From a virus (lineage: Duplodnaviria > Heunggongvirae > Uroviricota > Caudoviricetes), in IMG/VR virus record IMGVR_UViG_2534681762_000010: a stretch of 45,749 nucleotides of DNA. The stretch is one strand, 5' to 3'. Below are positions 17,851-20,714 of the stretch, in pieces; the stretch's first letter is position 1; each line of letters starts with the position of its first letter. The notes under the pieces are model-generated. The model worked only from the letters and a program-made list of their open reading frames with translations, made no database searches and had not been told where the DNA came from. A program made the translations under genes and the position numbers.

Positions 17851-17922
17851 TTAATTCGTGTACGTGATCTGGTACGTGATTTCCGCCATCGCCCAGGTGG
17901 CCATCTCATTATCACGTTGATA
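17851..17922 (-). pseudogene. U: displaced 3' remnant (last 23 codons) of tail terminator gene U, separated from the rest by the IS66 insertion
   Basis: in-frame continuation after the target duplication encodes YQRDNEMATWAMAEITYQITYTN-stop, resembling the lambda U C-terminus (...TYVITYEM). Confidence 0.6.
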
Positions 17923-17930
17923 GTTAAAAC
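17923..17930 (+). repeat. target-site duplication (left copy) GTTAAAAC of the IS66-family insertion
   Basis: identical 8-bp direct repeat at 20373-20380 directly abutting both IS ends. Confidence 0.8.
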
Positions 17931-18022
17931 GTAAGCGTACAGCCTGAACCGTCTGGTCAGAATCTGACAAATTAGACAAAGTGGTGTCCACCAAATAAGT
18001 AGTGGGAACCAAAGTGTCAGAT

Positions 18023-18403
18023 ATGCAGAAAAATGTGACTCCCGGCAGGCGAAAAGGCTGCCCTAATTATCCTCCCGAATTTAAACAGCAGCTCGTTGCT
18101 GCCTCCTGTGAACCCGGGATATCCATCTCAAAACTTGCTCTTGAAAATGGCATTAACGCCAATCTGTTGTTCAAATGGCGACAACAATGGCGCGAGGGAA
18201 AGCTGCTATTACCTTCTTCAGAGAGCCCCCAGCTACTTCCTGTGACTCTCGATGCAGCTGCCGAACAGCCAGAATCGCTCGCAGAGGACCCGGAAACCCT
18301 CAGTATCAGCTGTGAGGTAACGTTCCGGCACGGGACGCTCCGCTTCAATGGCAATGTCAGCGAAAAGCTCCTGACTCTGCTGATACAGGAACTGAAGCGA
18401 TGA
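18023..18403 (+). CDS. tnpA: IS66-family accessory protein TnpA (Orf1)
   Basis: about 126 aa HTH protein; ATGA overlap with tnpB start. Confidence 0.8.
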   Translation: MQKNVTPGRRKGCPNYPPEFKQQLVAASCEPGISISKLALENGINANLLFKWRQQWREGKLLLPSSESPQLLPVTLDAAAEQPESLAEDPETLSISCEVTFRHGTLRFNGNVSEKLLTLLIQELKR

Positions 18404-18747
18404 TCCCGTTACCTTCCGGGACCAAAATTTGGCTGGTTGCCGGTATCACCGATATGAGAAATGGCTTCAACGGCCTGGCTGCGAAAGTACAAACGGCGCT
18501 GAAAGACGATCCCATGTCCGGCCATGTTTTCATTTTCCGGGGCCGCAGCGGCAGTCAGGTTAAACTGCTGTGGTCCACCGGTGACGGACTGTGCCTCCTG
18601 ACCAAACGGCTGGAGCGTGGGCGCTTCGCCTGGCCGTCAGCCCGTGATGGCAAAGTGTTCCTTACGCAGGCGCAGCTGGCGATGCTGCTGGAAGGTATCG
18701 ACTGGCGACAGCCCAAGCGGTTGCTGACCTCCCTGACCATGCTGTAA
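18400..18747 (+). CDS. tnpB: IS66-family TnpB (Orf2)
   Basis: 115 aa, [26 protein letters not shown]... typical IS66 Orf2. Confidence 0.85.
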
Positions 18748-18796
18748 ATCTCTTTATCCTGGTTGTCACAGAATAAGCCCGGTAAAATACGGGCTT

Positions 18797-20335
18797 ATGA
18801 ACGACATCTCTTCTGACGACATCTTCCTGCTGAAACAGCGCCTGGCCGAACAGGAAGCGCTGATCCACGCCCTGCAGGAAAAGCTGAGCAACCGGGAGCG
18901 CGAAATAGACCATCTGCAGGCGCAGCTGGATAAACTCCGCCGGATGAACTTCGGCAGTCGTTCCGAAAAAGTCTCCCGCCGTATCGCACAAATGGAAGCC
19001 GATCTGAACCGGCTTCAGAAAGAGAGCGATACGCTGACTGGTAGGGTGTATGACCCGGCTGTACAGCGTCCGTTGCGTCAGACCCGCACCCGTAAGCCGT
19101 TCCCTGAATCACTACCCCGTGACGAAAAGCGACTGTTGCCTGCGGCGCCGTGCTGCCCGAACTGCGGCGGTTCACTGAGCTATCTGGGCGAGGATACCGC
19201 CGAACAGCTGGAGTTGATGCGTAGTGCCTTCCGGGTTATCCGGACGGTACGGGAAAAACATGCCTGTACTCAGTGCGATGCCATCGTGCAGGCACCTGCA
19301 CCTTCGCGGCCCATCGAGCGGGGTATCGCCGGACCGGGGCTGCTGGCCCGCGTGCTGACCTCGAAGTATGCAGAGCACACCCCGCTGTATCGCCAGTCAG
19401 AAATATACGGCCGGCAAGGTGTGGAGCTGAGCCGTTCACTGCTGTCGGGCTGGGTGGATGCATGCTGCCGGCTGCTGTCTCCGCTGGAAGAGGCGCTTCA
19501 TGGCTATGTCATGACTGACGGCAAACTCCATGCCGATGATACCCCGGTCCAGGTACTGCTGCCGGGTAATAAGAAGACGAAGACCGGGCGGTTGTGGGCG
19601 TATGTTCGTGATGACCGCAATGCCGGGTCAGCGTTGGCACCTGCAGTGTGGTTCGCTTACAGCCCGGACAGAAAAGGCATCCATCCGCAGACTCATCTTG
19701 CCTGCTTCAGCGGTGTGCTGCAAGCGGATGCGTACGCCGGGTTCAACGAGCTGTATCGCAATGGTGGGATAACGGAAGCTGCCTGCTGGGCTCATGCCCG
19801 CCGAAAGATCCACGATGTGCACGTCCGCATCCCGTCAGCACTGACGGAAGAAGCCCTGGAGCAGATCGGTCAGTTGTACGCCATAGAGGCGGATATAAGG
19901 GGAATGCCGGCAGAGCAGCGGCTTGCTGAACGTCAGCGAAAAACGAAACCGCTGTTGAAATCCCTGGAAAGCTGGTTGCGTGAAAAGATGAAAACCCTGT
20001 CGCGACACTCAGAACTGGCGAAAGCGTTCGCATACGCCCTGAACCAGTGGCCGGCGCTGACGTACTATGCAGATGATGGCTGGGCTGAGGCGGACAATAA
20101 CATCGCTGAAAATGCGTTGCGGATGGTCAGTCTGGGCCGCAAAAACTACCTGTTCTTCGGTTCGGATCATGGAGGAGAGCGGGGAGCGCTGCTGTACAGC
20201 CTGATCGGGACGTGCAAACTGAACGGAGTGGAGCCAGAAAGCTACCTCCGCTATGTCCTTGACGTCATAGCCGACTGGCCGATAAACCGGGTCGGCGAAC
20301 TGCTCCCCTGGCGCGTAGCACTGCCGACTGAATAA
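18797..20335 (+). CDS. tnpC: IS66-family transposase TnpC (Orf3)
   Basis: 512 aa, N-terminal leucine zipper, CxxC-N16-CxxC zinc motif, DDE-type core. Confidence 0.9.
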
Positions 20336-20345
20336 CACATCCCCG

Positions 20346-20714
20346 TCAATACGGTTCTTGCTGCACGCTTACGTTAAAACCGAGTGGGATCAGGGTGTCG
20401 ATGAGTCCGGAAAGTGCCGGTATATCATTCAGGGCAGGGAAAATGGTGCTCTCCATCCACATATCCAGCTCTGAATCCGGTGCCTGTGCCCGGATGAAGA
20501 CGGCAATATGCAGAACAGCCTGCCAGTCATCTTCATCCGTCATTTTTCCGGTGTACTGAGCATCACTCAGCCACACCGCCACGGCAGGCAGTTCCTGCGC
20601 ATCAATAAATGCCGGAAGCCCGTCAAAAAACGTGGCGCTGTCTCCACACTGTTCCCGAAGGCGTGCCAGTACGGCCTGGCGGATTTGTGTATGCCGGTTC
20701 ATCGGGTCAGCCAT
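20346..20714 (-). pseudogene. U: tail terminator U, C-terminally truncated by IS66 insertion (114 native codons + 8 IS-encoded codons)
   Basis: ATFFDG...DSELD.WMES...DIPALS resembles lambda U; reading frame runs into the IS right inverted repeat (..GFN|VSVQQEPY-stop). Confidence 0.75.
20373..20380 (+). repeat. target-site duplication (right copy) GTTAAAAC
   Basis: matches 17923-17930. Confidence 0.8.

Follow-up and report, generated by a model that had tools for sequence, protein, structure and literature searches.

An IS66-family insertion interrupting the tail terminator gene U of a lambdoid prophage of Escherichia coli and its probable effect on tail assembly

The stretch of DNA analysed here (the window) is the 45,749-nucleotide IMG/VR virus record IMGVR_UViG_2534681762_000010 (Caudoviricetes), and our subject is an insertion sequence (IS) of the IS66 family that lies inside gene U, which encodes the phage tail terminator protein. 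The window opens in the 3' part of ydfJ (4-1284), whose N-terminus is missing as it is at the Qin locus, and ends within the prophage exonuclease gene of the early left operon (44766-45749). The host of the insertion is a lambdoid prophage integrated at ydfJ, the Qin locus. The terminase, portal, ClpP-capsid fusion, head-tail, other tail and lysis genes are present at full length, as are genes for a Q-like antiterminator, an O-like replication protein, and CII-like and repressor-like regulators. The other late genes in the window have no internal stops, and the only visible lesion within the window is the IS insertion.

The tail genes follow the order of the lambda-type tail module: Z, U and V, and then G, T, H, M, L, K, I and J downstream. 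The tail completion gene Z (20699-21277, minus strand) is intact, matches the full Pfam Minor_tail_Z profile (E 1.9e-76) and lies upstream of U. The major tail tube gene V (17097-17840, minus strand; Pfam Phage_TTP_12 and Big_2) is also intact and stands directly downstream of what remains of the 3' end of U, with its own Shine-Dalgarno sequence, AAGGAGGTG; its product is 99.6% identical over its full length to the V protein of a relative, and the gene has no internal stops. Between Z and V, gene U is in two pieces separated by the IS.

The IS occupies 17931-20372 (plus strand) and is 2,442 bp long; relative to the phage late operon its genes run antisense. Direct reading of the sequence showed a perfect 8-bp repeat, GTTAAAAC, at both flanks, the left copy at 17923-17930 and the right copy at 20373-20380. 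At a fixed pair of positions, all 8 of 8 bases would agree by chance with a probability of 1.6e-5, and a scan of 43,291 window positions found this pair to be the sole pair of identical 8-mers at the spacing of the IS flanks. The ends of the element, GTAAGCGTACAGC... and GTAAGCGTGCAGC..., are inverted and imperfect: the left terminal inverted repeat (IRL, 17931-17952, plus strand, GTAAGCGTACAGCCTGAACCGT) and the right one (IRR, 20351-20372, minus strand, GTAAGCGTGCAGCAAGAACCGT) match at 19 of 22 terminal nucleotides, and at 21 of 26 over a longer span. Both open with GTAAGCGT, which is of the GTAAGCG type. A 13-nt terminal motif occurred at only two sites in the 45.7-kb window, where 0.15 would be expected by chance, and these two sites are the IS ends.

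Three genes were found within these limits. The first, tnpA (18023-18403, plus strand), encodes a 126-aa protein with an HTH_Tnp_1 domain (PF01527, E 1.8e-12). Its stop shares the sequence ATGA (18400-18403) with the start of tnpB (18400-18747, plus strand), which encodes a 115-aa IS66 Orf2-like protein (TnpB_IS66, PF05717, E 1.2e-38). The third, tnpC (18797-20335, plus strand), encodes a 512-aa IS66-family DDE transposase without internal stops, in which Pfam recognised LZ_Tnp_IS66 (PF13007), zf-IS66 (PF13005), DDE_Tnp_IS66 (PF03050; E 5.7e-106, profile positions 1-283 of 284) and DDE_Tnp_IS66_C (PF13817). A hallmark of the IS66 family is a pair of imperfect inverted repeats at the ends, some 20-30 bp long and beginning with GTAAGCG. 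An 8-bp target duplication has been reported for IS66 (PMC6778807). The element belongs to the IS66 family, since every testable feature was found: the TnpC domains, the accessory genes tnpA and tnpB upstream of tnpC, the 8-bp duplication and the GTAAGCG-type ends.

The IS splits U after codon 110 of 133, that is, at the junction of codons 110 and 111. The upstream piece now forms a chimeric gene, U' (20346-20702, minus strand), whose translation runs through 110 residues of U to ...LIPLGFN, continues with eight IS-encoded residues (VSVQQEPY) and ends at a stop at 20346-20348. The displaced 3' remnant (17851-17922, minus strand) consists of the last 23 codons and a TAA, encoding YQRDNEMATWAMAEITYQITYTN followed by the stop. 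The match to Phage_tail_U (PF06141) is split in the same way: the upstream fragment covers profile positions 1-111 (E 1e-47), and the remnant covers 110-130 (E 9.6e-7). U' aligned with positions 1-114 of 133 of the PHROG 37 tail terminator, and the remnant with residues 109-129 of lambda gpU. When the fragments were joined with one copy of the duplication, the restored U matched the lambda gpU structures (PDB 1Z1Z, 3FZ2 and 3FZB) over residues 3-131 at E 4e-43. The restored protein thus resembles lambda gpU (also seen in the virion structures 8IYD and 8K37) in the position of its gene between Z and V, in its end-to-end alignment and in the five strands and two helices predicted for its fold; it differs in length (133 aa versus 131 aa in lambda), in a substantially diverged sequence and, in the window itself, in being interrupted so that the gene codes for residues 1-110 plus 8 foreign ones.

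These results bear out most of what an initial annotation, made from the sequence alone, had said of the locus. It had described an IS66-family element at 17931-20372 with GTAAGCG inverted repeats, and every coordinate was correct, the family domains and the ends being confirmed; the perfect 8-bp direct repeat was present on re-inspection. Its placing of the insertion 23 codons before the natural stop of U, the eight foreign residues it assigned to the upstream fragment and the lambda-U-like C-terminus it recognised in the displaced 3' end all held. The upstream limit of the region, 20714, which it had taken as the start of U, stood less well: an ATG does exist there as an alternative, but U probably starts at the ATG at 20702, four codons further downstream. 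Identical uninterrupted genes in RefSeq encode 133 aa from the ATG equivalent to 20702, which overlaps the Z stop as ATGA, and a start at 20702 also fits the N-terminus of lambda gpU. A 122-aa U' starting from 20714 is not on record anywhere, whereas the 118-aa form is.

The public assembly also calls a 42-aa open reading frame (ORF) at 17851-17979 (minus strand), which starts in the left end of the IS and runs into the U remnant. It scores as Phage_tail_U in Pfam and could pass for a small U-like gene, and is an artefact of the insertion.

We next consider the age of the insertion, which the initial annotation had called recent. When the IS and one copy of the repeat were removed in silico, the resulting 1,051 bp were 100% identical to the Z-U-V regions of 7 complete E. 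coli genomes, so that the alignment to IS-free relatives proposed by the initial annotation gave an uninterrupted site. Such a site, with at least 80% of the query covered, was found in 1,839 of 5,426 complete E. coli genomes. No match spanning either junction was found in the same 5,426 genomes with 160-bp queries across each junction. A lookup of the 118-aa chimeric protein that covered about 15 billion proteins found it on record only in GCA_000355115.2 (contig AQEJ01000010.1) and in the Logan assemblies of runs SRR447115 and SRR447116, and the loci in all three were 100% identical to the window. The perfect duplication, the 100% identical empty site, the absence of the junctions elsewhere and the presence of 100%-identical IS copies in other places together indicate, at the level of sequence, that the insertion is recent and private to one narrow E. 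coli clone, represented by GCA_000355115.2 and the two runs of adjacent accession.

Two sets of matches could have been mistaken for the same insertion. A same-size match in O145:H28 (97.8%) was ruled out, as ISEc8 sits in V there and not in U, and matches in O157:H7 were ruled out, as ISEc8 there interrupts a head gene at a distance of about 1.1 kb. We also ruled out that U naturally ends at this position, the condition under which the initial annotation would have failed: full-length homologues are 133 aa, none of the full-length family members ends here, and the shorter database entries are flagged as partial or are frameshifted. Other E. coli U alleles (database proteins P0031, P0032 and P0066) are frameshifted or scrambled, and U decay in resident prophages evidently also arises by routes other than IS insertion.

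Multi-copy IS break short-read assemblies, and both Logan contigs do stop within the IS, as expected of a multi-copy repeat; it could therefore be argued that the IS was set into U by the mis-joining of contigs that end in repeats. A mis-join, however, would not be expected to leave a perfect 8-bp duplication at the exact IS termini, nor would excision of the misplaced piece restore the natural gene at 100%, and the junction between U and IRR recurs in the two independently assembled runs. We give an assembly artefact practically no credence.

The element was compared with ISEc8 of enterohaemorrhagic E. coli, using copies annotated in RefSeq as 'ISEc8 family' rather than the ISfinder type sequence. 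One copy, L001, is from E. coli O145:H28 RM12761 (NZ_CP007133.1) and the other, L002, from E. coli O157:H7 F1273 (NZ_CP038376.1). The window IS is alike in its length of 2,442 bp, its three-gene layout, its left end GTAAGCGTACAGC and its 8-bp duplications, and its TnpA and TnpB proteins are identical to those of both copies. Nucleotide identity, ungapped and at equal length, was 97.38% to L001 and 97.54% to L002. In contrast, among the 512 residues of the window TnpC, 16 are changed relative to L001 (96.9% identity) and 14 relative to L002 (97.3%); these changes are in its C-terminus, and the right inverted repeat carries 4 changes. The differences from ISEc8 are clustered, 52 of 64 falling in the last ~380 bp (window 19993-20364, IS positions 2063-2434), a segment that covers the C-terminal ~114 residues of TnpC and the right inverted repeat, and this clustering suggests a recombinant 3' end of the IS rather than uniform divergence. 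The ISfinder rule for isoforms asks for the same length and at least 95% nucleotide identity, and a further ISfinder rule asks for at least 98% transposase amino-acid identity. The window IS has the length and the nucleotide identity, but its TnpC falls short of 98%, and we therefore call it 'ISEc8-like'; on these comparisons the most fitting name is that of an isoform or mosaic relative of ISEc8, as distinct from the ISEc8 reference itself. The element is a common one in E. coli. Copies 100% identical to it were found on replicons of the enterotoxigenic E. coli (ETEC) strains H10407 and E24377A and in many other strains and plasmids, under the PGAP name of merely 'IS66 family transposase'. 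The copy is presumably active; the indirect signs of this are its intact ORFs, the 100%-identical copies in many contexts and the apparently fresh insertion with a perfect duplication.

The structural consequence for U was examined on an AlphaFold model of a full-length database homologue that is one residue off the restored U (21-sequence alignment; pLDDT 89, pTM 0.84). The model contains helices at residues 3-19 and 76-91 and strands at 24-27, 40-47, 59-71, 103-113 and 120-132, and agrees with the published fold of lambda gpU, a five-strand antiparallel sheet with two flanking helices, in which all 131 residues are ordered in the virion (PMC10721106). In this model of the homologue, a break after residue 110 takes away the end of beta4 and the entire beta5, about 1.3 of the five strands of the core sheet. 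The lost 23 residues hold six invariant columns of the family (Y111, R113, D114, W120, A123 and I129) and several more columns that are at least 90% conserved. The window gene, which stops after residue 110, does not encode the complete gpU fold of the hexameric cap.

It might still be supposed that the C-terminal 23 residues are dispensable and that U' keeps terminator activity, since the 110 N-terminal residues that remain include the O-loop (25-37) and the E-loop (45-58), with which lambda gpU touches FII and V (PMC10721106). Against this, what is lost belongs to the core sheet and to its most conserved columns, no residue of lambda gpU is disordered in the virion, and the family has no full-length member that ends at residue 110. 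We regard a functional U' as highly improbable, and the model makes a folded, hexamerising terminator from U' very unlikely. Loss of the end of beta4, of beta5 and of the six invariant columns would be the reason that U' is almost certainly without function, in line with the part that the initial annotation gave to the loss of the U C-terminus.

The initial annotation had further predicted polarity on Z-U-V expression. In its strong form, this explanation says that the insertion cuts U short and also exerts strong polarity on the late operon; tail proteins would then be missing altogether, and the only product would be heads without tails. From the U' stop to the V start the late transcript would carry 2,506 nt of untranslated antisense-IS RNA, which is the classical setting for Rho-dependent polarity in ordinary operons, and one weak terminator-like hairpin was found inside the IS on the late-operon strand (18103-18087, minus strand). 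However, this single hairpin has a poor T-tail, and terminator-like sites were no commoner than in shuffled sequences (4 versus 4.3, consensus scan). No sigma-70-like promoter was found in 17000-21400 by a consensus scan, which thus gives no ground for claiming an outward promoter of the IS or an intrinsic terminator of any strength. Polarity cannot reach Z, which precedes U on the minus-strand late operon, and V keeps its own strong Shine-Dalgarno sequence, TAAGGAGGTGGTAATG.

RNA polymerase modified by Q resists terminators and reads through them, and the prophage carries a full-length gene for a Q-like late antiterminator (34912-35727, minus strand; PHROG 127 / 25523, E 1e-110, full coverage), whose product is 100% identical to the antitermination protein of a relative. 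A precedent is found in O157 strain 9000, where ISEc8 lies inside stx2A, a gene that the Q-dependent late transcript reaches before the lysis genes; when that strain was compared with a precisely repaired one, neither the timing of phage-dependent lysis nor the induction of stx2B was changed by ISEc8 (PMC6776261). Since late transcription is Q-antiterminated and V is served by a strong ribosome-binding site of its own, the insertion probably costs V and the tail genes beyond it little of their expression. Strong polarity would also predict an absence of tails, which is not what the loss of U gives in lambda. We consider it unlikely, and the polarity claim of the initial annotation was not upheld.

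These results favour the reading that a recent ISEc8-like insertion amounts to an essentially U-null lesion in an otherwise intact prophage, and not to a polar block; we put the probability of this at about 0.85. On this reading, an ISEc8-like copy of the IS66 family transposed recently into codon 110/111 of U, within one narrow E. coli clone, duplicating the 8-bp target GTTAAAAC. The resulting U', with 110 native and 8 foreign residues and lacking the end of beta4 and beta5, would be unable to fold or to hexamerise. Lambda without U makes capsids and very long polytails (PMC11784142), because the tube protein polymerises uncapped, and we would therefore expect induction to yield heads filled with DNA alongside over-long tail tubes that lack a terminator (polytails), the two remaining unjoined, rather than an absence of tails. 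The prophage on its own would not make infectious particles. The expectation of the initial annotation that the prophage cannot build tails would thus stand in part: U is lost and the heads would remain unjoined, but 'tail-less' is imprecise, as the tube should still polymerise. Compared with the amber and deletion mutants of lambda U, the window allele is expected to be alike in having no terminator hexamer, uncapped polymerisation of V and unjoined heads. It is unlike them in that the cause is an IS insertion and that a truncated polypeptide may still be made, and the polytail phenotype, seen in lambda, is here predicted from the genes.

Four points weigh against this conclusion. The int and xis genes and the other attachment site lie beyond the window, and with them part of what decides whether the prophage can be induced and excised. 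The 2.5 kb of untranslated RNA could lower V expression through mRNA instability, or through Rho if Q modification is incomplete. The comparison with strain 9000 is supportive rather than decisive, as the orientation of its ISEc8 may differ from the antisense orientation seen here. Finally, the loss of function of U' is, for this strain, deduced from structure and conservation.

A different outcome is conceivable in the natural host, where a co-resident lambdoid prophage might supply U in trans or repair the gene by recombination and so render the lesion silent; the prophage would then still be packaged in complete virions and passed on. A single E. coli genome holds regions homologous to U-V at up to 7 places (median 2), and prophages of O157 Sakai that are defective in head or tail genes are still packaged and transferred through prophage-prophage interactions (PMC2669165). 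On the other hand, a heterologous U must fit the prophage's own V and FII-like partners, and a compatible U allele would have to be present elsewhere in the source genome. In its native host the prophage may in this way not show the U defect, a prospect that we hold to be possible, if rather unlikely.

Several insertions comparable to the U-null allele came to light. ISEc8 has been reported in nu1 of the Sakai prophage Sp4 (PMC2669165). In a closely related prophage of O145:H28 RM12761, an ISEc8 copy (L001:3049-5490) splits the tail tube gene V with the 8-bp duplication TCATCTTC; only about 160 bp of phage sequence separate this independent IS66-family event from the U site. In the equivalent prophage of O157:H7 F1273, ISEc8 (L002:4732-7173, duplication ACCAGATC) sits in a DUF2190 / Phage_cement_2 head gene, and the same head-gene insertion was present in NZRM3614, AC-3 and AC-5. 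The leftover fragment of this head gene in O157:H7 is mislabelled by PGAP as 'recombinase RecA, partial'. The closest relative of the head, lysis and early region of the window, E. coli 33F4 (NZ_CM147849.1), carries a further IS66-family element, ISEc23, in the DUF1327 gene of its lysis cassette (L005:15638-18155), a gene that is intact in the window. The window insertion is like the ISEc8 insertions in nu1, stx2A, V and the head gene in the kind of IS, in striking a late or morphogenesis gene, in its 8-bp duplication and in the prophage family, which is lambda-like with a ClpP-capsid fusion and a Z-U-V-G-T-H tail module. It is unlike them in its target gene, U, in its target GTTAAAAC as opposed to TCATCTTC and ACCAGATC, in its host lineage, and in being private and apparently very recent.

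Six independent insertions were thus met without a dedicated search: U in the window, V in O145:H28, the head gene in O157:H7, the lysis-cassette gene in 33F4, nu1 in Sp4 and stx2A in strain 9000. One might go further and propose that IS66-family elements (ISEc8, ISEc23 and the window isoform) preferentially target or persist in the late and morphogenesis regions of E. coli prophages of this lambdoid family, as a recurrent form of prophage domestication. As a more speculative variant, U' may be a dominant-negative subunit that poisons the tail termination of co-resident or superinfecting lambdoid phages. We think such extensions very unlikely. A target-site hot spot was dropped, as the duplications GTTAAAAC, TCATCTTC and ACCAGATC share no common motif. 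Inactivation of prophages by IS, ISEc8 included, is already well documented, and the insertion in the window is an ordinary instance of it, of small importance beyond strain-level annotation. At that level, it identifies the single lesion that probably leaves an otherwise complete Qin-site lambdoid prophage without infectious particles of its own, it exemplifies, with a date set by rarity, the continuing activity of the IS66 family in an ETEC-like background, and it offers a natural U-null allele that is clean and whose wild-type counterpart is known.

Elsewhere in the window, the immunity and replication module (40360-42678) has no counterpart in 33F4, a relative that is otherwise 99-100% identical, as is typical of lambdoid mosaicism. 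It comprises an O-like gene (40360-41337), a Cro/repressor-like gene (41754-42098) and a repressor-like gene (42202-42678); the putative repressor of 158 aa had no PHROG match at E<=1e-5. Two prophage tRNA genes (34510-34586 and 34687-34762, minus strand) lie between Q and the lysis genes. They encode a tRNA-Arg(tct) and a tRNA with a CAT anticodon, the latter called Met by ARAGORN and tRNA-Ile in the RefSeq annotation of the equivalent gene of a relative.

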